DNA from: Candidatus Hadarchaeota archaeon
GTDB lineage: Archaea > Hadarchaeota > Hadarchaeia > Hadarchaeales > Hadarchaeaceae
Assembly: GCA_964514965.1 (NCBI GenBank)
Contig: CAZETV010000001.1
Coordinates: forward strand, 30,001 to 62,000
Length of the DNA stretch: 32,000 nucleotides
Direction: 5' to 3'
Part shown: positions 10,308-31,490 of the stretch, piece after piece
How the letters are laid out: each line of letters opens with the position of its first letter
Position numbering within the stretch: position 1 is the first letter of the stretch
Translations under genes and position numbers: made by a program
The notes under the pieces: generated by a model
Seen by the model: only the letters and a program-made list of their open reading frames with translations
Told to the model about the DNA's origin: nothing
Databases searched by the model: none

Positions 10308-11564
10308 TCACGCGGCAGGTCTAAATCTCAAGAGCGCTGCTAACCCTTTGAAAGCTATTAGAAGTTGTTTGCCCTCCTCGGTTTCGGTTGAGATGAACTC
10401 GGCGCCAGCACCAAACTTTTCTGCTAGCTCCAACAGCTCTTGCACGACGTCCTTGTTCCCGACTAACGACAACCTAGTTTCGCCGCAGTTCGGGCATTCT
10501 CGCACAGATAGCTGTTTTTCAAATTTTTCGACATCTTCGACGGTTTCCCGCAGTTCATGCCCGCAAGATTGACATTTTGCAGTTACTCGATTTTTCCTTA
10601 TACCCTCTGAAATTAACAATAGCTCGACAGCACCCAGCTCGAGAGAGTGCCTGATTTCCCGCTCGCCATATGTCGCTAGTCCTCTGCCAGCGACGAGTTC
10701 TTCCATGAAGCGTTGGACGAGCGATTTTTCCTTCAGAATATCTAGGTCGGCGAGTATCTCACCTGATTTGTTGACCACTTCCTTTACTCCTTGCTCATCG
10801 GTGTAGCCAGTATCGAGTACTCCAGCGATTTTCTTCTTGATCCTATCTTGCAATAATTCACTTTTCAAGAATTCTTCTTTAGTCGGCCCAGGCCCACCGA
10901 CTATAACCGCCCGCAAATCTGATATATGCGAAAATATCTCGTTGGCGGCTTCTGCAACTCTTTTCGCGTACTCATGAGCAGCGATTTCTATCAACCTTTC
11001 GAACCGTCGTGCAGACTGACCTCCCTTGCCGTGTTTTCCGGGTACTCCGGAGGTCAACCTTCTCACTATCTCTATGTTTTTGCCACGTAGGGTCGCGAGC
11101 GTCGCTTCTCGCCGGTCCATGACGAGCACTCCCACGGTCTCTTTGACTTGGGTCATATCTCGCAGCGGGTCAAGCACGAACTCTTGGTCGCAACGATACA
11201 TCTTGATAGTTATCTGCTCGGGGGGTTCGACCCAATAAAGCTTGATGTCGGCGATGTCATCGCGTCCAGCCACGTTTCCACAAAATATTGCCATCCCATT
11301 TGGAGGGGGACGCTTGTGAGTGTCGGCGTAGATGCGCAAGAACTGGATAATTCGCTCGAGAGCGCTTACCACGTTCTTTCGGGTAGTTTTCGACTTTATA
11401 TTTGCTGCCGTCCCTTGCTCATCCCTGAGTTGTTGGATAACTTTGATGAGTTCAAAATCGGGGGTAATGTAGACCGAGATTAGCTCGGTTCCTCGGCCGC
11501 GCTTGCTAGCCAAATCTTCGAGCATCCGCTTAAATTGGTAACGCGCCTTGCTATCGACAGACAT
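10308..11564 (-). CDS. prf1: Peptide chain release factor aRF1
   Basis: The 418-aa ORF has NIKS (TAANIKSK), YxCxxxF (YRCDQEF) and GGQ (KGGQSARRF) motifs. The N-terminus YQFKRMLEDLASKRGRGTELISVYI is typical of the family. Confidence 0.95.
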   Translation of the reverse strand: MSVDSKARYQFKRMLEDLASKRGRGTELISVYITPDFELIKVIQQLRDEQGTAANIKSKTTRKNVVSALERIIQFLRIYADTHKRPPPNGMAIFCGNVAGRDDIADIKLYWVEPPEQITIKMYRCDQEFVLDPLRDMTQVKETVGVLVMDRREATLATLRGKNIEIVRRLTSGVPGKHGKGGQSARRFERLIEIAAHEYAKRVAEAANEIFSHISDLRAVIVGGPGPTKEEFLKSELLQDRIKKKIAGVLDTGYTDEQGVKEVVNKSGEILADLDILKEKSLVQRFMEELVAGRGLATYGEREIRHSLELGAVELLLISEGIRKNRVTAKCQSCGHELRETVEDVEKFEKQLSVRECPNCGETRLSLVGNKDVVQELLELAEKFGAGAEFISTETEEGKQLLIAFKGLAALLRFRPAA

Positions 11565-16895: not shown

Positions 16896-16986
16896 GGGCC
16901 CATAGCTCAGTTGGTAGAGCGCCGCCTTCGCATGCATTTGCCGGAAAAGGCGGAGGTCGCGGGTTCGAGTCCCGCTGGGTCCACCA
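16896..16986 (+). tRNA. tRNA-Ala (anticodon CGC) with a 15-nt intron at 37/38 and encoded CCA
   Basis: I drew the cloverleaf by hand. The acceptor GGGCCCA pairs with TGGGTCC, giving the G3:U70 Ala identity pair. The D arm is GCTC/GAGC, the anticodon stem is CCGCC/GGCGG, and the loop is TTCGCA..A. The intron is 16933-16947 (TGCATTTGCCGGAAA). The T arm is GCGGG-TTCGAGT-CCCGC, followed by ACCA. Confidence 0.9.
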
Positions 16987-17804: not shown

Positions 17805-17897
17805 GGGCCCGTGGCGCAGATTGGTTAGCGCGTTCGGCTGATAGCCAGTTTGGCAGAAACCGGAAGGTCGAGGGTTCGAATCCCTCCGGGCCCACCA
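17805..17897 (+). tRNA. tRNA-Ile (anticodon GAU) with a 15-nt intron at 37/38 and encoded CCA
   Basis: The acceptor is GGGCCCG/CGGGCCC and the D arm is GCGC/GCGC. The anticodon stem is TTCGG/CCGGA and the loop is CTGATA..A. The intron is 17844-17858 (GCCAGTTTGGCAGAA). The T arm is GAGGG-TTCGAAT-CCCTC, followed by ACCA. An A/T box AAATTTAAGT lies about 20-30 nt upstream. Confidence 0.9.
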
Positions 17898-19937: not shown

Positions 19938-20011
19938 GCCGGGGTGGCCCAATCTGGAAAGGCGGCGGACTGCAGATCCGCTTTTTGCCGGTTCAAATCC
20001 GGCCCCCGGCT
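19938..20011 (+). tRNA. tRNA-Cys (anticodon GCA), no intron, CCA not encoded
   Basis: The acceptor is GCCGGGG/CCCCGGC with discriminator U73. The anticodon stem is GCGGA/TCCGC with loop CTGCAGA. The T arm is GCCGG-TTCAAAT-CCGGC. T-runs follow (CTCTGTTTTTATACTTTTATTTC). Confidence 0.9.
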
Positions 20012-20112
20012 CTGTTTTTATACTTTTATTTCAAAGCCGACTTAGGCGTGCCAAAAATTGAATGCGTTCATAAAAAAAAAGGTTTATAAACACTATCTCT
20101 AAATCTCTCTTC

Positions 20113-20967
20113 ATGTGCCCGCCTTCGAAACTTTTCGGATTCGCGCTTGCGGCGATTTTTGTGGTCGTTGGATTGTCTGGATTAGTGGGTGCAGTTTCCG
20201 ATCATGGGTGGACTCTCGAAACCGCAGACCAGGCCTTCCAGACTTGGATAATAACGGATATAGAAGTAGGGCAGCAGGCAACGCTCACAGTCGATAGTTC
20301 CGGAAACTTTACAGGTTTGGGCTGGGTCGGAACCGCCCCAGGTGCTGGCGACTATAACATCTATATCACGAATGGTAGGATGTCAGGTACCTCGATGACC
20401 TTTCAGGTGAGTGCTTCTTATAGCGGAGGACAAGGGACCATTTCAGGAACAGGTACTGGGACACTGAACGCATCATTCCCGAGCGCTACATCAGCATCCG
20501 GAACACATTCCGGCACCATATCGGATCCACTTGGCAGTAAGGCTTACAGCTCCTCGTGGACTGCAACGAAAATTGGGGGAGACGGCGATGGAGGAGGTCT
20601 AGTCTTCCCAGACCTCACCGTATTAATCTATCGTGTAGCACCGGGTGTATCCCTTATCGTCGCTATAGTTGCAGCTGTTGCAATCGTAGTCGCTATTCTG
20701 CCCCTTCCACGTAAGGGGGTTCGACCCACAAGAGGTAAGTTAAAAACCGGTGCGCCTGCCAGCATGGTTCAGCATCTAGATTCAATACAAAAAATCCCGC
20801 CGGGTGCACGGCCTCTGCCTCAACCTAGGTTGCATCCGGGCAAATTTGAGCCAACCGATGTCCTTCAAAAAGTCCCCTGTCCATACTGCGGTACTATCCT
20901 CATTTCCGCATTTGGAAAATGGTACTGCCCGAATCCAAAGTGCAAATGGAATAAAGGAGAAGTGTAA
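20113..20967 (+). CDS. Hypothetical bitopic membrane protein: signal/anchor, Gly/Ser/Thr-rich ectodomain, TM helix, Pro-rich linker, C-terminal zinc ribbon
   Basis: The 284-aa ORF has an N-terminal hydrophobic segment, FGFALAAIFVVVGLSGLVGAV, and a central TM helix, VAPGVSLIVAIVAAVAIVVAILPL. The C-terminus is CPYCGTILISAFGKWYCPNPKC. A GGTTTATAAAC box lies about 25-30 nt before the ATG. Confidence 0.55.
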   Translation: MCPPSKLFGFALAAIFVVVGLSGLVGAVSDHGWTLETADQAFQTWIITDIEVGQQATLTVDSSGNFTGLGWVGTAPGAGDYNIYITNGRMSGTSMTFQVSASYSGGQGTISGTGTGTLNASFPSATSASGTHSGTISDPLGSKAYSSSWTATKIGGDGDGGGLVFPDLTVLIYRVAPGVSLIVAIVAAVAIVVAILPLPRKGVRPTRGKLKTGAPASMVQHLDSIQKIPPGARPLPQPRLHPGKFEPTDVLQKVPCPYCGTILISAFGKWYCPNPKCKWNKGEV

Positions 20968-21902: not shown

Positions 21903-22718
21903 TTAATATTCTGATGGGAGTTGTTTTAGTTTTTCATACGAAAAGACAGGTCCATCTCGGCATACATAAACACTGCCTAAATTGCACCTTCCGCATTTGC
22001 CCAATCCGCACTTCATTTTCATCTCAAGCGTCATAAAAATTTGATCGGGTTTGAATCCTAACTCCAAGAGGTTTTTCATGACAAAGTTTATCATGATTGG
22101 GGGACCGCAAGTCACGGCTATCGAATTTCCGGATGGAGGAGAAATTTTCAGCAAGTTGGCGGGTACGAAGCCTACAAATTCACCCCACCCATCCTCGGCC
22201 TTGTCGATTGATAAATGCACCTTTACTCCGTTATCCCTTAAGCCAAGGAGTTCTTTTTCTCGAATCAAATCTTTCCTACTCCTTGCTCCGTAAATTAACA
22301 TCAATTCTCTGTACTTTCCTTTATTCATTGTATAGTAAAGCAGAGGTCTCAGTGGGGGTAAACCTATGCCGCCGCCGATTAGTATTAATTTTTTTCCTTC
22401 CCACTCTTTAACTGGAAAACCGTTCCCATACGGTCCTCTTACCCAAACGGTTTCTCCCACCTCGAGTCTGTGCAGCGCCGTTGTAACTTTGCCCATCTTT
22501 TTCACGCAGATTTCTATTTTACCTTCAGCTGGTGGCGAAAAAAGAGAGACCGGAAACTCACCTTCCCCTAGCACTGATATTTCGAAGTACTGTCCCGGAA
22601 CAAAATTTAGCTTCTCTTCTCTGTCTTTTAGCTCCAGCTCAAAGCTCTTTATGTCTGGCGTTTCTTGCCTGATTTGCTTGATTACTGCGGGTTTTGGAGA
22701 GTAAATATATTCAGTCAA
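21903..22718 (-). CDS. FAD/NAD(P)-binding [2Fe-2S] oxidoreductase subunit, HydG (sulfhydrogenase gamma)/AsrB/FlxA-like
   Basis: The sequence reads PGQYFEISVLGEGEFPVS (FAD barrel) and LILIGGGIGLPPLRPL (NAD(P) fold). The C-terminus is MKCGLGKCGRCNLGSVYVCRDGPVF ([2Fe-2S]). I prefer the TTG start at 22718, which overlaps the upstream stop as TTGA and has a GGTGGGG SD. The track start at 22769 would overlap by 55 nt. Confidence 0.85.
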   Translation of the reverse strand: MTEYIYSPKPAVIKQIRQETPDIKSFELELKDREEKLNFVPGQYFEISVLGEGEFPVSLFSPPAEGKIEICVKKMGKVTTALHRLEVGETVWVRGPYGNGFPVKEWEGKKLILIGGGIGLPPLRPLLYYTMNKGKYRELMLIYGARSRKDLIREKELLGLRDNGVKVHLSIDKAEDGWGEFVGFVPANLLKISPPSGNSIAVTCGPPIMINFVMKNLLELGFKPDQIFMTLEMKMKCGLGKCGRCNLGSVYVCRDGPVFSYEKLKQLPSEY

Positions 22719-23716
22719 GATTTCCCCACCTTCGATAATATCTCGATTAAATTTATCCCTGATGGACAATTATCTAAGCATCTCCCGCAGCCGACGCAGC
22801 CGATTTCATCGATGTTTTCCAACAGGTATTGGAACTTGTGGTAGACTCTGTTTCGAATCCTCTCTCGTCGGGTTGGTCTTGGGTTATGGCCGGAGGATTG
22901 CAAGGTGAAATAAGGGAACGTGCAAGAATCCCAAGTTCTCACCCTGAAGGTTTTGCCGTCCAAGAATTCGTCAGTCAAATCAAAGCAATGACAGGTGGGG
23001 CAAAAGTAAGCGCATACCCCACAGCCAATACATATTTTGGATACTTCGTCCCAGATTTCGCTTTCGAAAGTGTGTTTTAATTTTGCGGTTACCTGCTTCA
23101 CATCTAATTCTCGTGCAATCTTTTTTTCCGCGTTCTGCTGGGTGTTTTTCCTTAACTCTATATCAGCTTTGGTTGGTTCTGAGAACAATTCTTTGCTACT
23201 CTCAACCAATTTTTCCCCGACCTTGCTCAACACTTCCACATAGTATTTCTCACCCATATCTGTGAGCAGCATATCGAGCCCATCTGTAGAAAACGGACCC
23301 AAGCCGAGAGAGCTGCAAAAACAATTTTCCCCTGGGGATGTACAGGCCAGCCCGATCATGGGGAGATTATTTTTCCTCTGTAAAAAGTAAGGGTCTTCAC
23401 GATCTTTTTCGAAAACCTTGGTCAACACCTGTATGCTTTTCGCATCGCAGGGTCTAACTCCAAATATTACTCCCAAGTTCGAAACTTTTGGTGTATAGAT
23501 CTCCTTTTTGCCCGCCATGAAAATCGTTTCCGTTTGAGGCATGAATAAAGACTTGATTGGTTTCAGGGTGTTCGTGAACTCAAAAGTTATTTCTTTCGGA
23601 TCATTTACAAGCTTAAACTCGATTTTGCCTTCCTCATCTTTAACAGGTGCATATAACTTTTCAGTGCGCAGATTTCGCAGAAACTTTTGCAAATCTCTCT
23701 TCTTGATGACTTTCAT
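22715..23716 (-). CDS. Fe-S subunit, HydB (sulfhydrogenase beta)/AsrA/FlxB-like, 4Fe-4S dicluster
   Basis: The 333-aa ORF reads GVRPCDAKSIQVLTKVF, with CTSPGENCFCSSLG. The two cluster motifs are CIGCGVCAYFCPTCHC and CVGCGRCLDNCPSG. The start overlaps the upstream stop (ATGA). Confidence 0.85.
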   Translation of the reverse strand: MKVIKKRDLQKFLRNLRTEKLYAPVKDEEGKIEFKLVNDPKEITFEFTNTLKPIKSLFMPQTETIFMAGKKEIYTPKVSNLGVIFGVRPCDAKSIQVLTKVFEKDREDPYFLQRKNNLPMIGLACTSPGENCFCSSLGLGPFSTDGLDMLLTDMGEKYYVEVLSKVGEKLVESSKELFSEPTKADIELRKNTQQNAEKKIARELDVKQVTAKLKHTFESEIWDEVSKICIGCGVCAYFCPTCHCFDLTDEFLDGKTFRVRTWDSCTFPYFTLQSSGHNPRPTRRERIRNRVYHKFQYLLENIDEIGCVGCGRCLDNCPSGINLIEILSKVGKS

Positions 23717-24684
23717 CTTATGAACTCCTCAGGATCCTCTAGTTTAAAACTCGCGAGAAGAGGTTTCTGTTCTATATTTATGCCCGCCCTGTAGTCAAAA
23801 AGATTCTTCATGTCTTTTTCCATTTTTCTAAACAGCTTTGAGAGTGGTATCCCCTCCGGGCAGCTATGTTCGCACGCAACGCAGCCAACGCACCTCCCGG
23901 CCAAGTGGAATACTCTCATCAAATGGAAAAAGGCATTTTCGGACTCAACTACTGATTTTTTAACCCATGTTGGCATCGTCTTGTCCGCGAGACATTCTTT
24001 GCAATAGCAGAGCGGACACACTTCCCTGCAGGCATAGCACCTAACACATTTACTTAGCTTTTCCTTCCAGTAATCCCATCTCTCCTCTAACTCCATTCTC
24101 TCTATCTCCTTCACGTCGTCGTAGTTCTCTTTGCCCCAGGGTTTCACTTCCTCGCCGAGCAGGATATCATAAATTACAGGGGTGGGATTTTGGCAGTGAT
24201 TGCAACTGTCGAACACGAATTCTCTTCGATCGAGTTTGATGACTCCATTTTTTGTTTCGACTTTCACTGTTCCGTTTTCGATTAGAATTCCCGTGACTGA
24301 AGAGGACTGTACATTTCTTTTACCGAGCTCTTCACGCAGTTTTTCAAGGTCTACTATACCCTGGCAAGGAATTCCTATCAGCACCACTTTCTCTCTGTCA
24401 ACAATCCCTTCCTGTATCAACTTTGTCACTGCACGGCTATCGCAACCTTTGACCACCAAGCCGATTTTTTCGCCTGCTTTGATTTCTTCTAAAGTTAAAT
24501 AGACGGCCAAATTGTGAGCACATAGAGAGGAATAGTGTAGTTTGTTAACATCATCGGTCGATTTAGCAAAGAAGGGCCTCGCGTTCAAGGGTTCGACCAT
24601 TTCGTATCCGATGATATATTTCACTTTTCCTTCGGTCAGTAGCCTGTTTGCCTCTTTTCGGAGATTTTCTACTAAGCTTACCAT
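23713..24684 (-). CDS. Second HydB/AsrA-like Fe-S subunit (FlxC-like), 4Fe-4S dicluster
   Basis: The 323-aa ORF reads GLVVKGCDSRAVTKLIQEG, the same N-domain motif as the neighbouring HydB-like protein. The cluster motifs are CVRCYACREVCPLCYC and CVGCVACEHSCPEG. The start overlaps the mvhD stop by 7 nt (ATGGTAA). Confidence 0.75.
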   Translation of the reverse strand: MVSLVENLRKEANRLLTEGKVKYIIGYEMVEPLNARPFFAKSTDDVNKLHYSSLCAHNLAVYLTLEEIKAGEKIGLVVKGCDSRAVTKLIQEGIVDREKVVLIGIPCQGIVDLEKLREELGKRNVQSSSVTGILIENGTVKVETKNGVIKLDRREFVFDSCNHCQNPTPVIYDILLGEEVKPWGKENYDDVKEIERMELEERWDYWKEKLSKCVRCYACREVCPLCYCKECLADKTMPTWVKKSVVESENAFFHLMRVFHLAGRCVGCVACEHSCPEGIPLSKLFRKMEKDMKNLFDYRAGINIEQKPLLASFKLEDPEEFIR

Positions 24685-25100
24685 TCTATCTTCCTCTTGA
24701 TTTTTTTCATTGGGCCAAGCACTCGGATTTCTTCCACCATGTCTTCCACGATTTTAGCAAACTTCTGTCCTTCCGATGCAGAAACCCACGCGGCTTGGAG
24801 CCTTTTTGGATTTATCCCAATGTATTCCAAAAGATTTCTTAGGAGCTTCAGTCTTCTTCTATTGTAATAGTTTCCTTCCCGATAATGGCATTCCCCTGGG
24901 TGACAACCACCTATGAACACGCCGTCAGCTCCTTGCTGGAAACACCTCAACACCCACAATGGATTCACCCTGCCCGAGCACATCACCCTGATGGTTCTCA
25001 AGTTAGGCGGGTAGGTCAATCTGCTAGTACCTGCCAAATCGGCTCCCGCATAAGCACACCAATTGCATAAGAAGCCTACTATACGCGGTTCCCAACTCAA
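24678..25100 (-). CDS. mvhD: MvhD/FlxD: methyl-viologen-reducing hydrogenase delta subunit family ([2Fe-2S])
   Basis: The 140-aa ORF reads PRIVGFLCNWCAYAGADLAG...IRVMCSGRV...GADGVFIGGCHPGECHY, the family signature. The TTG start overlaps the upstream stop as TTGA. Confidence 0.9.
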   Translation of the reverse strand: MSWEPRIVGFLCNWCAYAGADLAGTSRLTYPPNLRTIRVMCSGRVNPLWVLRCFQQGADGVFIGGCHPGECHYREGNYYNRRRLKLLRNLLEYIGINPKRLQAAWVSASEGQKFAKIVEDMVEEIRVLGPMKKIKRKIEW

Positions 25101-28100
25101 CTTTGCTCACCCAGTACATCGATTAAGGGCAATACTTGTTTGTCTTCAAAGTGTCGCTGTTGAATGGCTCCTGAAGGACAGGCTGCAGAGCATATGCCGC
25201 AACCTTTACATAACGCTTCATTTACCTTGGCTAATTTTGATATTGCCCCTTTCTTCTCCACCGTCTTGAGTTCTATTACATTTGTTGGACAAACCTCAGC
25301 ACAGAAACCACAACCAGTGCACAAATTCTCATCGACCGAGGCCACAATTCCTTCGGCCATCACCTTACCTTTTGTTAACAAAGAGCAAACTTCAGCTGCG
25401 CTCGCTGATGCTTGTGATACTGTGTCGGGGATGTCTTTGGGCGATTGGGCGCATCCAGCAAGGAAGATCCCGTCGCTAAAGGTATCGACAGGTCTAAGCT
25501 TTGGATGGGCCTCGAGGAAGAAGCCATCCGAGCCTTGGTTAATGTTTAGGATTTTGGCTAGCTCGGAGGCACCATGGCTAGGAACAATCGCGCTAGCTAA
25601 CACCACGAGGTCTACTTCTTCGGGCTCGTGAGGCTTTGCTTCCACAACGAGTTTGTCATTTTTTTTGCTGACCCTTATCTCGTCGTCCAGCTCCCTGCGC
25701 TTGTACTTCACTCCTTCGTCCTTGACCCGGTCGTAGAACTCCTCGTACCCTTTACCAAAAGCCCTGACATCTGTGTAGTATACAGTCACTTCAGCATCCG
25801 GAATTTTTTCCTTAATGAGGTGAGCATGCTTGGCCGTGTACATGCAGCATACGCGCGAGCAATATGAGTTCGTCTCTTTTTTCCTGCTTCCAACACAGGA
25901 GATGAATGCTACTCGCTTCGGCTCCTTACCGTTTATTTCAATTTTTCCGTTGGTCGGGCCGGAAGCCGAACTAAGCCTCTCGAACTCAAGCCCAGTTATC
26001 ACCTCTGGATATTTCCCGTAACCATACTCGGGGAGCTTGGAAGGATCGAATTGATCGAAGCCCGTGGTTACGACTATAGCGCCAACATCGAGTTCGATTG
26101 ATTCCTCTTTTTGATTATGAACAATGGCTTTGGCCTCGCATGCTTTTTCACATTCAAGACACTCAGAACACCCGCCGCACTGCAAACATCGTTTTGCTTC
26201 TTTTATCGCTTCTTCTTCGGTATAACCTAACTCGACTTCTCGAAAGTTGTTTTTCCTCTCTTCGATCGGCAGGTATCTCATCGGCACTTTTCGTTCATTT
26301 TTAACATCTTCTACTGATACCTCAGCGATTTTTGGTTTTATCCCGCGACCGTCTTTCAGGTCTTTCTCGTTGATGTATCTGTCAATGGAAATTGCAGCTT
26401 CTTTTCCGGCAGCAATTGCTTCTATAACAGTCCCAGCACCTAACACGGCATCGCCGCCGCAAAAAACGGCTTCTATATTGGTTGCTAACGATATAGGGTC
26501 AATTTTGACAGTTCCCCAAGGGGTACATTCTAAATTAATATCCTTGGTTAAGAAGCTCAAATCCACTTCCTGTCCGATAGCTAATATCAGGCTATCCGCT
26601 TCCATCATAAACTCAGAGCCAGGGATGGGTCTAACTTTTCTTCTACCAGTTTCATCAGGCTCTGTCAATTCCATCTTGATGCATTCAATTGCTTTGATAT
26701 GCTCGTTTTCACCTATAATTTTTGTTGGTGTGGTAAGATAGACTAGTTTCACGCCTTCATGCTCTGTTTCGTCAATTTCCCATTCTGGTTCTGCAGGCAT
26801 TTCTACACGAGACCTGCGATACATTATGATAACTTCCTTAGCACCTAATCTCAAAGCAGAACGTGCTGTGTCTAATGCTGCATTGCCTCCACCAACGACA
26901 ATTATCTTATCGCCTAGTTTAGGAGTCTTACCTAAATTCAGCTCTTTCAAGAATTCGGTAGCTTGGAATACACCTCCAAGTTTTTCGCCAAGTATATCCA
27001 TTTTTCTACCTTTCTGAGCCCCCACAGCTAAAAAAATCGCTTTATAACCACTGTCGAATAGGTTCTTTATAGTCAAATTTTTGCCTATCGCCGAGTTCAG
27101 ATGCACTTTAACTCCTAGCGCGAGAATGTCAGATATCTCTCTTTCAAGAATTTCTCTCGGCAGTCGAAAAGTAGGAACACCAAATCGCATCATGCCGCCA
27201 AGCACGGGCGCACTTTCATATATTGTTACAGGGTATCCTTTCATAGCAAGGTCATGAGCAGCAGTTAAGCCAGCAGGCCCTCCTCCGACTATAGCCACAG
27301 TTTCTGTTCTCTTTTTTATAGGGGAGGATTCTGTAGTAGGGCTCTTGAGCTCTAAATCTCCGACAAAACGTTTAATATGTGCTATGCTTACTGGCTCATC
27401 TATATCTTTTCTTGTGCATGCTTTTTCGCAAGGCCTGTGACAGACCCTGCCGCATATAGATGGAAACGGAAGTTTCTCTTTTATAACTTGGAGTGCCTCG
27501 TAGAATTTACCGCGACTGGTGAGCATTACGTAACCAGGTGCGCCAACACCTGCAGGGCACGCGTCTTTGCATGGTTGTAATCCCCGTTTATCGATAGTAT
27601 ATTTGGGCGGAACCGCTTGTGGGAATGGAATGTAAATTGATTTTCTGCTGCTGAGCCCAAAGTCAAACTCGTTTGGCAGTTTCACAGAGCATACTTCGGT
27701 GCATTCTCCACATCCAGTACACTTTTCCGGGTCCACGTATCTAGGCTTTTTCCTTACTTTTAACTTAAAGTTACCTACATAACCCTCGATGTTTTCAATT
27801 TCTGAATAAGTCAGGAGTTCTATATTTGGATGCCATTTTACGTCTACCATCTTGGGGGTGAGAATGCACGCAGAGCAATCCAGAGTTGGGAAAGTCTTGT
27901 CGAGTTGGGCCATCCTCCCTCCGATGGATGGTGAGCGCTCCACGAGGTATACTTTGAAACCCCTGTCCGCGATGTCGAGGGCAGCTTGCATCCCGGCTAT
28001 GCCCCCGCCTATTACGGCGGCCTGAGGTATGACGGAAATTTCGTTTCTTTCCAAGCTTTCGAGTTCTACAGCTCTGTTTACACCTGCCAAGACGAGTTCC

Positions 28101-28444
28101 AGCGCTTTTTTCGTAGCTTCTTCTTTTTCTTCATGAACCCAAGAGCATTGCTCTCTTATATTCACCATCTCGAAGCAGTAAGGATTCAGCCCCGCTTCTT
28201 CGACAGCGCTGCGAAAAGTAGGCTCATGCATCCTGGGCGAACAAGATGCTACTACTATTCTGTCTAACTTCTCCCTGCGGATATCATCTTTGATTAATTG
28301 CTGGCCGGGTTCTGAGCACATGTATTCGTAGTGTTTGGAGACCTTCACTCTTGGATGCTTTCCTATGGTATCCGCGACTTTTTCGACATCCACTGTCTTC
28401 GCAATGTTGGTTCCGCAATGACAGATATAGACGCCGATTTTCAT
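25097..28444 (-). CDS. HdrA-like flavoprotein with a GltD/NfnB-like NAD(P)H:FAD module nested in its inserted ferredoxin domain (1115 aa)
   Basis: The N-terminus and residues ~1-287 are collinear with the upstream HdrA (VYICHCG.., AAVIGGGIAGMQAAL, TLDCSACILTPKM, CTGCGECTEVC). Residues ~288-752 read CPAGV..PFPSICGRVCHRPCEKAC, VAIVGGGPAGLTAAHDL..GGMMRFGVPTFRLP and IIVVGGGNAALDTARSALRLGA..MYRR, which are GltD-type. HdrA then resumes with CLQCGGCSECLECEKAC, CVGSRKKETNSYCSRVCC and the C-terminal 2x[4Fe-4S] motifs. Confidence 0.9.
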   Translation of the reverse strand: MKIGVYICHCGTNIAKTVDVEKVADTIGKHPRVKVSKHYEYMCSEPGQQLIKDDIRREKLDRIVVASCSPRMHEPTFRSAVEEAGLNPYCFEMVNIREQCSWVHEEKEEATKKALELVLAGVNRAVELESLERNEISVIPQAAVIGGGIAGMQAALDIADRGFKVYLVERSPSIGGRMAQLDKTFPTLDCSACILTPKMVDVKWHPNIELLTYSEIENIEGYVGNFKLKVRKKPRYVDPEKCTGCGECTEVCSVKLPNEFDFGLSSRKSIYIPFPQAVPPKYTIDKRGLQPCKDACPAGVGAPGYVMLTSRGKFYEALQVIKEKLPFPSICGRVCHRPCEKACTRKDIDEPVSIAHIKRFVGDLELKSPTTESSPIKKRTETVAIVGGGPAGLTAAHDLAMKGYPVTIYESAPVLGGMMRFGVPTFRLPREILEREISDILALGVKVHLNSAIGKNLTIKNLFDSGYKAIFLAVGAQKGRKMDILGEKLGGVFQATEFLKELNLGKTPKLGDKIIVVGGGNAALDTARSALRLGAKEVIIMYRRSRVEMPAEPEWEIDETEHEGVKLVYLTTPTKIIGENEHIKAIECIKMELTEPDETGRRKVRPIPGSEFMMEADSLILAIGQEVDLSFLTKDINLECTPWGTVKIDPISLATNIEAVFCGGDAVLGAGTVIEAIAAGKEAAISIDRYINEKDLKDGRGIKPKIAEVSVEDVKNERKVPMRYLPIEERKNNFREVELGYTEEEAIKEAKRCLQCGGCSECLECEKACEAKAIVHNQKEESIELDVGAIVVTTGFDQFDPSKLPEYGYGKYPEVITGLEFERLSSASGPTNGKIEINGKEPKRVAFISCVGSRKKETNSYCSRVCCMYTAKHAHLIKEKIPDAEVTVYYTDVRAFGKGYEEFYDRVKDEGVKYKRRELDDEIRVSKKNDKLVVEAKPHEPEEVDLVVLASAIVPSHGASELAKILNINQGSDGFFLEAHPKLRPVDTFSDGIFLAGCAQSPKDIPDTVSQASASAAEVCSLLTKGKVMAEGIVASVDENLCTGCGFCAEVCPTNVIELKTVEKKGAISKLAKVNEALCKGCGICSAACPSGAIQQRHFEDKQVLPLIDVLGEQS
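25632..26029. repeat. Copy A of a 398-bp perfectly identical tract shared by the two hdrA paralogues
   Basis: Base-by-base comparison with 28952-29349 (offset 3320) found no mismatch. The identity extends to 25605 with one mismatch, at 25631 (A versus G). The flanks drop to roughly 60-70% identity. Confidence 0.95.
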
Positions 28445-30399
28445 GATATCAGACCTGCCAATTGAGCGAAGAGTTGAACGTCCGTGTAATGTTTCATAGA
28501 GATAGCCTTAGACGGACAAGCGGCTACACAAACCCCGCAACCCTTGCAAAGCACTTCGTTGAGTTTTACTGAGCGTTTTTCGCTGTTATATTCAAAGGCA
28601 TTAAACTCACAAAGGTGTTCACACACTCTGCAACCGCTACATAGATCCTCATCCACAATTGCTACTATCGGCTCTATCGCGACTTTTCCAGCTGCCAGGG
28701 GTATAGATGCTTTAGCACCTGCACCGCTTGCTTGTGCTACTGTGTCGGGGATGTCTTTGGGCGATTGGGCGCAGCCGGCAAGGAAGATCCCGTCGCTAAA
28801 GGTATCGACAGGCCTAAGCTTTGGGTGGGCCTCGAGGAAGAAGCCATCCGAACCGCGGGTAATGTTCAAAATTCTGGCGAGTTCTAAGACTCCGGAGTTT
28901 GGAACTATTGCATTCGCCAGCACAACGAGGTCTACTTCTTCGGGCTCGTGGGGCTTTGCTTCCACAACGAGTTTGTCATTTTTTTTGCTGACCCTTATCT
29001 CGTCGTCCAGCTCCCTGCGCTTGTACTTCACTCCTTCGTCCTTGACCCGGTCGTAGAACTCCTCGTACCCTTTACCAAAAGCCCTGACATCTGTGTAGTA
29101 TACAGTCACTTCAGCATCCGGAATTTTTTCCTTAATGAGGTGAGCATGCTTGGCCGTGTACATGCAGCATACGCGCGAGCAATATGAGTTCGTCTCTTTT
29201 TTCCTGCTTCCAACACAGGAGATGAATGCTACTCGCTTCGGCTCCTTACCGTTTATTTCAATTTTTCCGTTGGTCGGGCCGGAAGCCGAACTAAGCCTCT
29301 CGAACTCAAGCCCAGTTATCACCTCTGGATATTTCCCGTAACCATACTCAGGCAACTGAGATGGATCAAACAAGTCAAAGCCTGTGGCGACCACTATCGA
29401 GCCTACTTCAAGTTCAATCGAATTTTCTTGTTGTTCAAAATCGATAGCGTTGCGGGAACACGCAGCTTTGCAAGCGGGGCTTTTCCCACATACCCCTCTC
29501 GTAAGGTATAGGCAATGCTTAGGGTCTATCAAGTATTTCATAGGCACGGCCTGCGGAAATGGTATGTATGCTGCTCCTCTCTTCCCTAAACCCAAATCGA
29601 ATTCATTTGGAAGCTTCCCATTCAGTAAGCAAGCTTTGGCGCATTCTCCGCAACCGATGCACTTTTCCTCATCGACATACCTCGGTTTTTTCTTAACCTT
29701 TACCTTGAAATTTCCGATGTAGCCTTCAATTCGTTCGACCTCCGAATAACTCAAGAGTTCTATATTTGGCTGTCTGTTCACGTCCACCATCTTGGGGGTT
29801 AAAATGCACGCAGAACAATCTAAGGTTGGAAAGGTTTTGTCGAGTTGAGCCATTTTTCCTCCGATGGATGGTGAGCGCTCCACGAGGTACGTGTATATTC
29901 CATTTTCTGCTATCTCCAACGCCGCTTGAATCCCGGCAATTCCTCCTCCAATCACCAAAGCTTTCGGTATTACATCTACTTCTCTCCTCTCTAGCGGCTG
30001 AAGTTCGGTAGCTCGTGCCACAGCGCCTGCAATCAATTTCTTGGCCTTTTCAGTGGCTCTTTCTTTATCTTCATGAACCCAAGAGCACTGTTCTCTTATA
30101 TTTGCCATCTCGAAGCAGTAGGGGTTGAGGTTCTTGTGTTCTACGACCTTTCTAAAAGTGGGTTCGTGCATTCTTGGAGAACAGCTCGCCACGACTACAC
30201 GATCAAGTCCGGCTTCGTCTATATCCTTCTTGATTAATTCTTGTCCTGGGTCAGAGCACATGTACTTATAGTCCCTAGCAATCACCACGTTTGGCAAAGA
30301 CTTGGCATATTTCACCACTTCTTCAACATCAACGGTAGCCGCTATATTTAAGCCGCAATGGCAAATGTACACGCCCGTTTTCACTTCCTTATCCCCCAT
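28441..30399 (-). CDS. hdrA: Heterodisulfide reductase subunit A (HdrA), canonical length
   Basis: The 652-aa ORF reads VYICHCGLNIA (N-domain) and ALVIGGGIAGIQAAL (FAD). The inserted ferredoxin is CIGCGECAKAC..CLYLTRGVCGKSPACKAAC. The HdrA signature CVGSRKKETNSYCSRVCC is present. The C-terminal ferredoxin is CSGCRVCEHLC / CKGCGVCVAACP. An ATGA overlap joins it to the next gene. Confidence 0.92.
   Translation of the reverse strand: MGDKEVKTGVYICHCGLNIAATVDVEEVVKYAKSLPNVVIARDYKYMCSDPGQELIKKDIDEAGLDRVVVASCSPRMHEPTFRKVVEHKNLNPYCFEMANIREQCSWVHEDKERATEKAKKLIAGAVARATELQPLERREVDVIPKALVIGGGIAGIQAALEIAENGIYTYLVERSPSIGGKMAQLDKTFPTLDCSACILTPKMVDVNRQPNIELLSYSEVERIEGYIGNFKVKVKKKPRYVDEEKCIGCGECAKACLLNGKLPNEFDLGLGKRGAAYIPFPQAVPMKYLIDPKHCLYLTRGVCGKSPACKAACSRNAIDFEQQENSIELEVGSIVVATGFDLFDPSQLPEYGYGKYPEVITGLEFERLSSASGPTNGKIEINGKEPKRVAFISCVGSRKKETNSYCSRVCCMYTAKHAHLIKEKIPDAEVTVYYTDVRAFGKGYEEFYDRVKDEGVKYKRRELDDEIRVSKKNDKLVVEAKPHEPEEVDLVVLANAIVPNSGVLELARILNITRGSDGFFLEAHPKLRPVDTFSDGIFLAGCAQSPKDIPDTVAQASGAGAKASIPLAAGKVAIEPIVAIVDEDLCSGCRVCEHLCEFNAFEYNSEKRSVKLNEVLCKGCGVCVAACPSKAISMKHYTDVQLFAQLAGLIS
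28952..29349. repeat. Copy B of the 398-bp identical tract
   Basis: This tract is identical to 25632-26029. The track's antisense ORFs 25830..26021 and 29150..29341 translate identically, which confirms the match independently. Confidence 0.95.
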
Positions 30400-30497: not shown

Positions 30498-31490
30498 TTG
30501 AGAAAAATGAAGAGTGAAGAACCAAAAAAGTTGAAATTTGCTTTCTACTGGGCTGGCAGTTGTGGGGGCTGTGAGATTGCTGTTCTAGATATAAACGAGA
30601 AGATTCTGGATGTGGTTGCCATTGCTGAGGTAATCTTTTGGCCTGTCGCCATGGATATCAAGTATAAAGACGTAGACGCGATGCCGGACAAGAGCATAGA
30701 CGTCTGTTTCTTTAATGGTTCGGTCAGGACAGAGGAGCAAGAACACATGGCCAAACTTCTGAGGCGGAAGTCAAAGTTTTTGATAGCATTTGGCACCTGT
30801 GCTCAGCTAGGTGGCATTCCAGGTCTTGCGAACATTTCGAATAAAAAAGAGATTTTCGAGAAGGTATACGTTCAAACTCCATCGACAAAAAATTCTAAAG
30901 CTGCGATACCTAAAACTGCTGTTAAAGTCGAATGCGGGGAACTAACTCTGCCAGAGTTTTATGATACTGTGAAGACACTAGATCAAACCGTGGAAGTGGA
31001 CTACTATATCCCAGGTTGTCCTCCGCACCCAAACTTGATATTGAAAGCCGTGGAAGCCATAGCCAAAAATGAGTTACCCGCTAAAGGTTCGGTATTGGCC
31101 CCCGAGAAGTCGGTTTGCGATGAATGTCAGAGGGAAAAGAAAGAAAAGGTTATCTCCAGATTATACAGGATGCACGAAATCAAACCAGATCCGGAGAAAT
31201 GTTTTTTGGAGCAGGGGGTGGTGTGCATTGGGCCCGCAACCCGTGGTGGATGCGAGGCGCGGTGTATCAATGCGAATATGCCTTGTACGGGGTGCGGTGG
31301 TCCATGCCCCAATGAAATCGAGCAAGGGGCGTCCATGATAAGTGCCATTTCTTCGATTCTCGGGTTGGATGAGGAAAAAGGAGAAACATATGACGCTGAA
31401 AAATTAATCAACCAAATAAAAGACCCCTTGGGGACTTTTTACCGGTACTCCCTGCCAGCTGCTCTCATCCGAAGGAGGGTTCAGAAATGA
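30498..31490 (+). CDS. mvhG: [NiFe]-hydrogenase small subunit, group 3 (MvhG-like)
   Basis: The 330-aa ORF reads KLKFAFYWAGSCGGCEIAVLDINEKILD (proximal cluster) and FGTCAQLGGIPG, with YIPGCPP. The distal cysteines are CDECQ..CFLEQGVVCIGPATRGGCEARCINANMPCTGCGGP. A TTG at 30498 lies 4 nt after a GAGGTGG SD; the ATG at 30507 is an alternative. Confidence 0.85.
   Translation: MRKMKSEEPKKLKFAFYWAGSCGGCEIAVLDINEKILDVVAIAEVIFWPVAMDIKYKDVDAMPDKSIDVCFFNGSVRTEEQEHMAKLLRRKSKFLIAFGTCAQLGGIPGLANISNKKEIFEKVYVQTPSTKNSKAAIPKTAVKVECGELTLPEFYDTVKTLDQTVEVDYYIPGCPPHPNLILKAVEAIAKNELPAKGSVLAPEKSVCDECQREKKEKVISRLYRMHEIKPDPEKCFLEQGVVCIGPATRGGCEARCINANMPCTGCGGPCPNEIEQGASMISAISSILGLDEEKGETYDAEKLINQIKDPLGTFYRYSLPAALIRRRVQK

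Follow-up and report, generated by a model that had tools for sequence, protein, structure and literature searches.

Solved HdrA complexes pass electrons to HdrBC and also to free ferredoxin, the latter by way of the inserted ferredoxin domain, which is reached through a cluster of the N-terminal domain for which the partner protomer supplies the completing ligand, Cys197 (PMC9012536). Large relatives of HdrA in which an NAD(P)H-binding module has been added to this scaffold have been published under three names. Here we describe a gene for such a protein, 1115 amino acids (aa) in length, that lies beside a plain hdrA gene in a 32,000-nucleotide (nt) stretch of DNA from a Candidatus Hadarchaeota archaeon (assembly GCA_964514965.1, contig CAZETV010000001.1, positions 30,001 to 62,000 of the forward strand; hereafter ‘the window’). 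An earlier note, made from the letters of this DNA, had proposed that a module resembling GltD and NfnB is nested within the inserted ferredoxin domain of the larger HdrA, and we have examined this proposal computationally.

The first name, HdrL, was introduced in 2009 for a large ‘HdrA / glutamate synthase fusion’ of Desulfobacterium autotrophicum that has a site for NADH; mvhD comes after its gene, and one locus carries hdrL and hdrA in tandem (Strittmatter et al., PMC2702500). Syntrophobacter fumaroxidans makes HdrABC/HdrL under sulfate-reducing conditions (PMC5947623). The second set, HdrA9-11 of ANME-1 archaea, carries an NfnB-like insertion that is 45% identical to Thermotoga maritima NfnB and interrupts the inserted ferredoxin domain, and two bifurcation sites and the use of NADPH were suggested for these proteins (Chadwick et al., PLoS Biol 2022, PMC9012536). 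The third name, ‘type III HdrA’ (Microbiol Spectr 2025, PMC12054007), covers class A9 of ANME-1 and class A10, the latter derived from type I A1, found in Bathyarchaeota and located next to mvhADG. From predicted structures, the authors of that study argued that the ferredoxin site is blocked, and they proposed NADH for the module, with NAD(P)H serving as a mid-potential donor. A related arrangement is known from StnC and Bfu NfnA, in which the FAD of an NfnL-like module takes electrons from NADPH without bifurcating them, and a chain of clusters carries them to a separate bifurcation site (PMC10482914, PMC12018979).

The two hdrA genes of the window overlap by 4 nt. Their positions, and the parts into which the larger protein can be divided, are as follows.

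28441 to 30399, minus strand: plain (type I) HdrA of 652 aa, the upstream paralogue (open reading frame (ORF), BLASTP and Pfam)
25097 to 28444, minus strand: type III HdrA / HdrL-like gene of 1115 aa, an HdrA scaffold with a nested NfnB-like module (single ORF; Pfam, Protein Data Bank (PDB) matches, AlphaFold and Foldseek)
27584 to 28444, minus strand: HdrA part 1 (aa 1-287), with the N-terminal cluster domain, the start of the FAD domain (GGGIAG) and the first ferredoxin motif (C242, C245, C248 and C252); 61% identical to the small HdrA and aligned with 5odc_A 5-291
26177 to 27577, minus strand: NfnB/NfnL-like NADPH-FAD-2x[4Fe-4S] module (aa 290-756), circularly permuted as judged by phmmer
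27344 to 27577, minus strand: cluster-binding helical domain (aa 290-367), Fer4_20 (Pfam 4e-23), with C292, C296, C331, C335, C339, E340 and C343
26405 to 27301, minus strand: two Rossmann folds (aa 382-680), Pyr_redox_2 (8.5e-43), the FAD fold with GGGPAG and R427 and the NADPH fold with GGGNAA and YRRSR (aa 542-546)
26297 to 26362, minus strand: linker (aa 695-716) joining the canonical NfnB C- and N-termini, lying between non-collinear NfnB blocks and modelled as coil at a predicted local distance difference test score (pLDDT) of about 75-86
26177 to 26296, minus strand: permuted segment (aa 717-756), ERKVPMRYLPIEERKNNFREVELGYTEEEAIKEAKRCLQC, equivalent to the NfnB/GltD N-terminus and carrying C753 and C756 (alignments with 4ylf_B, 5jca_L and 6s6s_G)
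26138 to 26170, minus strand: second motif of the HdrA inserted ferredoxin domain (C759, C762, C765 and C769), invariant and aligned with 8rvv_A 288-328
25100 to 26176, minus strand: HdrA part 2 (aa 757-1115), with the remainder of the FAD domain and the C-terminal 2x[4Fe-4S] ferredoxin domain (phmmer, 5odc_A 293-646)

The two HdrA proteins are collinear on both sides of the insert, as evident by the two blocks that BLASTP returns. The first pairs aa 1-286 of the large protein with aa 6-291 of the small one at 61% identity, the second pairs aa 749-1105 with aa 292-644 at 76% identity, and no alignment is made between the blocks. Direct repeats shared by the genes are spaced by 1940 nt on the 5′ side of the insert and by 3320 nt on the 3′ side, and these offsets, together with their difference of 1380 nt or 460 codons, agree exactly with those reported in the earlier note. 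The coordinates given there for the insert, 26189-27583, likewise correspond exactly to aa 288-752. Its estimates of about 28 and about 465 residues between the anchor strings ..KY and E(E/N)SIEL do not hold, as we count 35 residues in the small HdrA and 497 in the large one; the 460-codon difference is unaffected. The insert sits between C242-C252 and C759-C769, which are the two cysteine motifs of the HdrA inserted ferredoxin domain, and the nesting is therefore as had been proposed.

Three lines of evidence identify the inserted region as GltD/NfnB-like. Sequence searches of the PDB assign the flanks to HdrA (8rvu and 5odc, E about 1e-222 or lower) and the insert to NfnB (4ylf_B, 6e-104), NfnL (5jca_L, 1e-95) and GltD (6s6s_G, 4e-68), with dihydropyrimidine dehydrogenase also among the matches. 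Pfam finds Fer4_20 and Pyr_redox_2, corresponding to the Fe-S helical domain and the two Rossmann signatures that had been read by eye, and every motif string quoted in the earlier note is present. An AlphaFold2 model of the 1115-aa protein, built on 32 homologues, has a mean pLDDT of 82.7 and a predicted template modelling score of 0.71, with the insert scoring highest (mostly 85-95). When this model is compared with solved structures by Foldseek, the scaffold superposes on HdrA 5odc_A with a target template modelling (TM) score of 0.87 and the insert is spanned as a gap, and the insert superposes on 4ylf_B (TM 0.82, root-mean-square deviation (rmsd) 2.0 Å) and on 5jca_L (TM 0.80, rmsd 2.2 Å).

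Because a fusion of two loci could in principle be created by the assembler, we considered whether HdrA and NfnB genes had been joined artificially, or whether the assembly had collapsed across a repeat shared by the two hdrA genes. Such a repeat exists. A perfect repeat of 398 nt lies 160 nt downstream of the 3′ junction of the insert, and repeats of this length can mislead short-read assemblers. However, an assembler that jumped across this repeat would at most exchange the 3′ ends of the two genes and could not produce the insert, and both junctions fall within conserved cluster motifs. An independent metagenome contig from JGI (L001) codes for a protein of 1115 aa that is 92% identical, and the neighbouring genes are the same, in the order divergent hydrogenase small and large subunits, HdrA, large HdrA, FlpD, FrhB_C protein and the next gene, and an NCBI contig from a metagenome-assembled genome (L002) has the same gene order. 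We also collected homologues by a search of 5.8 billion proteins, retaining the best 120 clusters at 90% identity. The insert is present in all 120 clusters and starts at residue 288 wherever the N-terminal part of HdrA is complete, and 64 of the 85 homologous loci examined (mostly GTDB genome contigs) also carry it. On the strength of the independent contigs and of the identical seam in every homologue cluster we regard mis-assembly as ruled out, leaving a chance so small that it can be neglected.

The homologues also bear out a connection that the earlier note had raised, namely that to HdrL. A protein from a Desulfobacteraceae metagenome-assembled genome aligns with the 1115-aa HdrA in a single BLASTP block of 1139 columns that covers all 1115 residues and both junctions at 49% identity. 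A scan of GTDB species genomes yields full-length collinear matches of about 3.3 kb in many groups, among them Dehalococcoidia, Desulfobacteraceae, Desulfatitalea, Desulfosarcina, Desulfatibacillum, Aminicenantes, WOR-3, Gemmatimonadota, Vicinamibacteria and Anaerolineae, and a longer match of about 4.4 kb in Thorarchaeota. The seam motif is kept in full-length ORFs parsed from these GTDB matches, including those from Desulfosarcina, Desulfatitalea and Desulfatibacillum. Named protein matches are found additionally in Theionarchaea, Methanofastidiosia, Promethearchaeota, Thermoplasmatota and Edwardsbacteria. The type III HdrA family is far wider than the published surveys state, and it includes Asgard archaea.

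These comparisons show that the nested architecture is not new, although novelty had been entertained for it: it is the architecture already published as HdrL, as ANME-1 HdrA9-11 and as type III HdrA, to which this locus adds an archaeal example from a lineage unsurveyed for HdrA. As in type III HdrA classes A9 and A10 and in HdrA9-11, a GltD/NfnB-like domain of about 470-500 aa breaks the inserted ferredoxin domain, and as in class A10 the scaffold is that of a full type I HdrA, clusters with mvhADG-type genes and keeps the equivalents of K409 and E356. The two studies of those proteins (PMC12054007, PMC9012536) concern methane- or alkane-metabolising archaea only (nine sequences, from ANME-1 and Bathyarchaeota) and include no Hadarchaeota. 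The HdrL proteins of D. autotrophicum and S. fumaroxidans share the NAD(P)H-binding HdrA/glutamate synthase fusion, the mvhD gene that follows and, in one D. autotrophicum locus, the tandem hdrL/hdrA arrangement. They differ in that bacterial proteins of HdrL type are about 45-49% identical to the protein described here, and some carry selenocysteine or extra domains; HdrL1-3 of D. autotrophicum are likened to it by their description. Our own additions are modest and comprise a permuted plug-in module, NADPH motifs and cassette exchange.

The first of these additions was overlooked by the earlier note. The insert and NfnB are not collinear, as phmmer aligns aa 290-691 of the insert with residues 45-459 of 4ylf_B and aa 717-756 with residues 3-42. 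The entry of the insert (aa 290 onward, QPCKDACPAG..) aligns with NfnB from residue 45, and its last stretch, aa 717-756, aligns with T. maritima NfnB 3-44, with Pyrococcus furiosus NfnL 8-57 and with GltD 17-53. The Fer4_20 profile of Pfam is split in the same manner, with profile positions 30-110 matched at aa 290-367 and positions 1-54 matched at about aa 729-782. By these alignments the module is a circular permutant of NfnB, and the order of the protein reads HdrA(1-287), NfnB(45-459), a 22-residue linker (aa 695-716), NfnB(3-42) and then HdrA from its second ferredoxin motif onward.

The permutation cut falls in the four-residue loop of the first cluster motif of NfnB, CxxC|xxxxCxxxCP, so that C753 and C756 stand at the exit of the insert and C292 and C296 at its entry. 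Because the NfnB order is permuted, a single cluster motif closes the insert from both ends. The HdrA motif C759-x2-C762-x2-C765-x3-C769 begins two residues past C756, the last cysteine of the NfnB part. The string CLQCGGCSECLECEKAC, through which the earlier note had the chain returning to HdrA, is indeed present, but it is a composite in which C753 and C756 belong to the NfnB module and C759, C762, C765 and C769 make up the second HdrA ferredoxin motif. All 120 homologue clusters carry the resulting seam motif, RC[LM]xC..CxxCxxCxxxC.

Relative to NfnB and NfnL (4ylf_B, 5jca_L), the module has the same fold (TM about 0.8, rmsd 2.0-2.2 Å, 42% identity) and the same complement of FAD and two [4Fe-4S] clusters, together with a site for NADPH; it also has an arginine aligned with the one near flavin N5, and the first cysteine of the CGRVC motif. 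It differs in being permuted, as the canonical N-terminal helix and CxxC are not found ahead of CxxxCP, in apparently having no dedicated NfnA partner here, and in having its ferredoxin-facing end covalently fused to HdrA rather than exposed. Circular permutation is mentioned in neither the type III HdrA text nor the HdrA9-11 text (PMC12054007, PMC9012536). A literature search for circular permutation together with NfnB returned nothing, and the word stems ‘permut’ and ‘rearrang’ do not occur in the Stn, Nfn-Bfu and type III HdrA papers; such a search cannot prove that an observation is unpublished, and permutation of an NfnB-like module may be described here for the first time.

Among solved structures, the insert is closest not to NfnB but to the NfnL-like domains found in transhydrogenase subunits of Bfu type (9bov_A, 9e-129; 9n5u_A, 4e-124; StnC 8oh5_C, 7e-112), and these have the permuted order as well. 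The regions 102-575 of 9bov_A and 102-574 of 8oh5_C are collinear with the insert, and 9n5u_A aligns as two blocks in the same order (104-503 and 541-602). The shared order extends to the ending, ..ERKNNFxE..EAxRCLxC. Here, however, the flanks are HdrA, whereas the hosts of the StnC and Bfu NfnA modules are NuoG/Fdh-like, with the module placed after a [2Fe-2S] domain of about 100 aa, and those modules are without an equivalent of C331.

To judge how widely the module is used, the insert was searched exhaustively with HMMER against 1.84 billion representatives at 50% identity, and the best 150 matches were classed. Nearly all of them (144 of 150) are collinear through the permuted C-terminal segment. 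HdrA flanks the module on both sides in 20 matches and on one side in 21, and 30 are built like Bfu NfnA/StnC, the module being preceded by about 100 aa and followed by 500-700 aa. Another 67 have hosts of different kinds, among them a polyferredoxin-like protein and one that ends in an MvhD-like domain. Six matches of 489-566 aa look like free-standing permuted modules, although some metagenomic proteins may be fragments. Among the apparently free-standing proteins, P0261, P0304, P0281 and P0384 (489-546 aa) start with ..PCxxxCP and end with ..RCLxC; P0304 starts with MYISPCQNACPAG and ends with ..EAKRCLRC plus 20 residues. The permutation would place the two termini of the module side by side at the distal cluster, and this would be what allows it to be inserted into a loop of a host protein. 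The permuted module may be a general plug-in cassette, used on its own, in HdrA, in NuoG-like proteins and in other hosts.

Two further observations point to mobility and elaboration of this cassette. P0047 (L002 527-3868, GCA_964345105.1) is 82-87% identical to the 1115-aa HdrA in the scaffold at the amino acid level but just 41% identical in the insert, and the nearest relative of its insert in our set (57%) comes from a different scaffold lineage. At the nucleotide level the two genes agree at about 90% of positions in the part for aa 1-225, at about 50% in that for aa 300-760 and at about 80% beyond aa 790, with the drop extending across aa 230-790. Because identity of the scaffold is high and that of the insert region collapses, the comparison suggests that the whole cassette, ferredoxin domain and module together, was replaced by recombination. 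P0002 and about 30 other clusters of 1212-aa relatives (locus L085, 9001-12639) have one more 2x[4Fe-4S] ferredoxin domain, at aa 513-574 of P0002. It separates the FAD fold of the insert from the NADPH fold, which makes three levels of nesting. In relatives of 1500-1700 aa, two HdrAs are joined in one chain that carries the same insert, and one such protein is also fused to MvhD.

The scaffold genes themselves appear to exchange sequence. The 398-nt tract noted above is identical between the paralogues base by base at an offset of 3320 nt (25632-26029 and 28952-29349), with near-identical flanks (25409-25545, about 94%) and a diverged patch (25547-25596, 60%) around it. The remainder of the two genes is 56-70% identical, and identity at third codon positions is 1.0 within the tract versus about 0.3 elsewhere. 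The same region of the L001 paralogues is 82% identical versus 73% elsewhere. This pattern looks like recurrent gene conversion between the tandem hdrA genes, with collapse of the assembly as the less probable alternative.

We next asked whether the module retains the residues expected of a functional redox unit, using an alignment of 32 homologues that are 55-92% identical to the 1115-aa protein. All cysteines at the seam are invariant, as are C292, C296, C335, C339, E340 and C343 of the module, and C331 is nearly so. Taking the ligand pattern of dihydropyrimidine dehydrogenase as a template, which we assume to apply here, C753, C756, C292 and C343 would hold the cluster distal to FAD, and by the same presumed analogy C296, C335 and C339 with either C331 or E340 would hold the proximal one. 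C331 (in ICGRVC) is kept as in NfnB, and its position is occupied by Ile or Leu in StnC and Bfu NfnA; the Desulfobacteraceae homologue also differs at this point (VLGRVC). Lys170 of StnC, at the position of R333 here, serves as a cluster ligand. R427 is invariant and has aligned counterparts in T. maritima NfnB (Arg187), P. furiosus NfnL (Arg201) and StnC (Arg239), although the counterpart in non-bifurcating StnC adopts a different geometry.

The HdrA side is conserved as well. C8, C10, C43 and C68 of the N-terminal domain, C190 and C193 of LDCSAC (which include the equivalent of Cys197) and the four cysteines of the first ferredoxin motif are invariant in the same 32 homologues, and C850, C862, C866 and C867 of the FAD-domain cluster and both ferredoxin domains are retained. 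The flavin contacts of HdrA are also kept, with E822 aligned to E356 and K872 to K409 of 5odc_A; Lys409 contacts flavin N5 in 5ODC (PMC6405883). The 1115-aa protein is a complete, cofactor-competent HdrA of the HdrL / type III class. Could the module nevertheless be a decayed structural remnant without a redox role? The related StnC and NfnA offer examples of dead-end clusters and of remnant domains, and nothing specific to this protein favours such decay. Since homologues with an overall identity of just 40-60% keep every cysteine ligand, both nucleotide motifs and R427 unchanged or nearly so, and since model confidence peaks in the insert, we consider this explanation very improbable.

The nucleotide motifs bear on which pyridine nucleotide the module would use. 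GGGPAG at aa 387-392 belongs to the first Rossmann fold, the aligned counterpart of the fold that binds FAD in NfnB. The second, nicotinamide fold (region aa 518-546) carries GGGNAA, of the form GxGxxA, followed by YRRSR. GxGxxAxD and YRR are found together in 116 of the 120 homologue clusters and are common to the NADPH-binding proteins NfnB, NfnL, StnC, Bfu NfnA and GltD, and all close solved relatives (NfnB, NfnL, StnC and Bfu NfnA) bind NADP(H). The arginines of YRR would contact the 2′-phosphate of NADPH, as in the NfnB/GltD family. These motifs favour a preference for NADPH over NADH, because the GXGXXG of this protein is the glycine loop of the FAD fold and its nicotinamide fold has the GxGxxA form. 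The type III HdrA study proposes NADH and argues for NAD+ from GXGXXG (PMC12054007), and this motif is present here as GGGPAG. Given its place in the FAD-binding fold, and given a nicotinamide fold like those of NADPH-binding relatives, an NADH-specific module is improbable, if less so than a decayed one.

The genes that surround the large hdrA gene indicate with which proteins it is likely to work. Six co-oriented minus-strand genes occupy 21.9-30.4 kb of the window, and the start of each overlaps the preceding gene by 4-55 nt. The partners of the two hdrA genes, and the divergent hydrogenase genes upstream of them, are listed here.

24678 to 25100, minus strand: MvhD/FlpD-family [2Fe-2S] electron-transfer protein, 140 aa (PF02662, 1.7e-56), overlapping the stop codon of the 1115-aa gene
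23713 to 24684, minus strand: iron-sulfur protein corresponding to the C-terminal half of FdhB/FrhB (FlxC-like), 323 aa (PF04432; matches 9t1s_M and 8rvu_E)
22715 to 23716, minus strand: sulfhydrogenase-beta-like (FlxB-like) iron-sulfur protein, Fer4_22, 333 aa (PF17179; sulfhydrogenase I beta 9nez_B, 3.5e-53)
21903 to 22769, minus strand: sulfhydrogenase-gamma-like (FlxA/PyrK/NfnA-fold) protein for FAD, NAD(P)H and [2Fe-2S], 288 aa (PF00970, PF00175 and PF10418)
30498 to 31490, plus strand: [NiFe]-hydrogenase small subunit, divergent (PF01058)
31487 onward, to 32000, plus strand: [NiFe]-hydrogenase large subunit, start only, as the window end cuts the gene (open frame with RICGVCPVAHH; ATGA overlap with the small-subunit gene)

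Solved supercomplexes contain FdhB subunits docked on HdrA, and PDB sequence search matches the 323-aa protein to their C-terminal half. The 288-aa protein, which Pfam divides into FAD_binding_6, NAD_binding_1 and DHODB_Fe-S, is far closer to sulfhydrogenase I gamma (9nez_C, 3e-63) than to NfnA (4ylf_A, just 2e-14). Genes like FlxA, FlxB, FlxC and FlxD thus adjoin hdrA, as judged by domain content and PDB relatives. On the L001 contig, the syntenic hydrogenase genes are PF01058 and PF00374, with HycI and a second FlpD gene further out. Across the homologous loci, mvhD adjoins the type III hdrA gene in 45 of the 64 type III loci. The organisation resembles that of the FlxABCD-HdrABC and MvhADG-HdrABC systems in having MvhD (FlxD) and FlxC-, FlxB- and FlxA-like genes together with hdrA and a divergent upstream [NiFe]-hydrogenase pair. 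It differs from them in having no hdrB or hdrC in the window, in having two HdrA paralogues, and in that the ferredoxin site of one of these is occupied by an NADPH module.

Two candidate partnerships were weighed. A complete NfnAB pair in the operon is not supported, as the 288-aa PyrK-fold protein is sulfhydrogenase-gamma-like on the scores given above and lies next to a beta-like partner. Nor is the Flx-like set a specific partner of type III HdrA, because all three genes occur in 7 of the 64 type III loci and each of them occurs in at least 10 of the 21 plain-HdrA loci. No Bfu B or C genes are present among the genes of the window. Elsewhere, a locus from Promethearchaeota (L083, GCA_048938655.1) and one of Theionarchaea type (L084) carry FlpD, FlxC-like, beta-like and gamma-like genes followed by type III HdrA, and downstream of it a NuoF-like (Complex1_51K) gene, Fer2_4 and a second FlpD gene. 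In L083, genes for HdrB/HdrC and HycI and two pairs of [NiFe]-hydrogenase genes lie close by, with HdrB and HdrC beside the homologous cluster.

Our preferred reading, to which we assign a probability of roughly 70%, is that one branch of an electron-bifurcating HdrA complex uses NADP(H) as its partner where methanogen enzymes hand electrons from the inserted domain to free ferredoxin. It is the most economical one because the ferredoxin-facing ends of the HdrA domain and of the NfnB-type module are covalently continuous, and it is supported by the same view of a blocked ferredoxin site that was reached from published structure prediction (PMC12054007). NADP(H) would exchange hydride with the FAD of the module, and single electrons would then cross the proximal and then the distal [4Fe-4S] cluster, the latter presumably ligated from both ends of the insert by C753 and C756 at the exit and C292 at the entry. 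From there they would enter the two clusters of the HdrA inserted ferredoxin domain, whose first cysteine of the second motif, C759, is two residues past C756, and would reach the bifurcating HdrA flavin (K872, E822) by the N-terminal cluster of a dimer partner, probably the plain HdrA encoded by the adjacent gene. Other branches could lead by way of MvhD to the NAD(P)H dehydrogenase subunits of Flx type, to the neighbouring [NiFe]-hydrogenase, or to both, and a further branch could lead to a disulfide-reducing unit of HdrBC type encoded elsewhere. The overall reaction may be an H2- or NADH-driven reduction of NADP+ that is pulled by disulfide reduction. A heterodimer of the two HdrA paralogues, with one ferredoxin-accessible end and one NADPH-linked end, is plausible because the large gene comes after a plain hdrA gene in three places, namely here, in L001 and in a locus encoding a 1212-aa homologue.

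Several points weigh against replacement of ferredoxin by NADP(H). The searchable literature holds no biochemical or structural study of any HdrL or type III HdrA, and the 32-kb window encodes neither HdrB nor HdrC, as evident by the lack of any CCG-domain or HdrC-like ORF. The branch that would be fed is the low-potential one in methanogen HdrA, and the clusters of NfnB form the low-potential path in NfnAB. With both paths of low potential, a simple NADPH port is not the sole thermodynamically sensible reading. In addition, the module keeps C331 like bifurcating NfnB and unlike StnC and Bfu NfnA, and it keeps R427, though StnC and Bfu NfnA share this arginine.

The last two points raise the alternative that the NfnB-like FAD also bifurcates, as proposed for ANME-1 HdrA9-11 (PMC9012536). 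Two bifurcating flavins would then be joined tail to tail by low-potential [4Fe-4S] chains acting as a built-in ferredoxin, and the protein of sulfhydrogenase-gamma/NfnA fold, or some other [2Fe-2S] centre, would take the high-potential electron from the NfnB-like flavin. Besides the retention of C331 and E340 as in NfnB, where StnC and Bfu NfnA have lost the cysteine, this alternative draws on the alignment of R427 with the N5-contacting Arg187 (T. maritima) and Arg201 (P. furiosus), and on the operon gene for a PyrK/NfnA-fold FAD-[2Fe-2S] protein. Yet the arginine is also found in non-bifurcating StnC, where geometry rather than identity decides, and the 288-aa protein is nearer to sulfhydrogenase gamma than to NfnA and sits beside a beta-like partner. 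Moreover, the nearest solved relatives with the permuted topology are non-bifurcating entry modules, and the Flx-like set also lies beside plain HdrA in 10 of 21 loci. Double bifurcation is consequently the most serious competitor to the NADP(H)-for-ferredoxin reading, but it strikes us as unlikely.

Elsewhere in the window, two long tRNA genes of 91 and 93 nt (16896-16986 and 17805-17897, both on the plus strand; the anticodon of the first is left unnamed by ARAGORN) probably contain introns of archaeal type, and a tRNA-Cys gene of normal size is found at 19938-20012. An ORF of 284 aa (20113-20967, plus strand) has no Pfam match and combines a hydrophobic N-terminus, repeats rich in Gly, Ser and Thr, a transmembrane-like stretch and a C-terminal CxxC..CxxC pair. 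Housekeeping genes of the window encode eRF1, methionyl-tRNA synthetase (MetRS), a second class I tRNA synthetase of the Ile/Leu/Val family, GTP cyclohydrolase III, S-adenosylhomocysteine (SAH) hydrolase, Thi4 and MoaE, a set that marks the DNA as archaeal. The eRF1 protein (10308-11564, minus strand) shares 65-76% of its residues with proteins assigned by name to Hadarchaeota/Hadarchaeales, which makes a genome related to Hadarchaeota the probable source.

With three publications and three names behind it, the architecture of the 1115-aa HdrA matters little in itself. It represents a class, widespread in anaerobic archaea and bacteria, in which a pyridine-nucleotide module takes the place of the ferredoxin site of a bifurcating enzyme. 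For those who purify or model such complexes, the useful points are that the module is a circular permutant with a split cluster motif, that it appears as a cassette in unrelated hosts, and that its motifs point to NADPH where NADH has been proposed. If double bifurcation were true, the protein would couple NADPH, NAD(P)H or H2, and disulfide without a diffusible low-potential carrier. Establishing the true reaction would clarify how NADPH, NADH, H2 and the thiol/disulfide pool are balanced without methanogenesis in Hadarchaeota, Asgard archaea, Dehalococcoidia and sulfate reducers.

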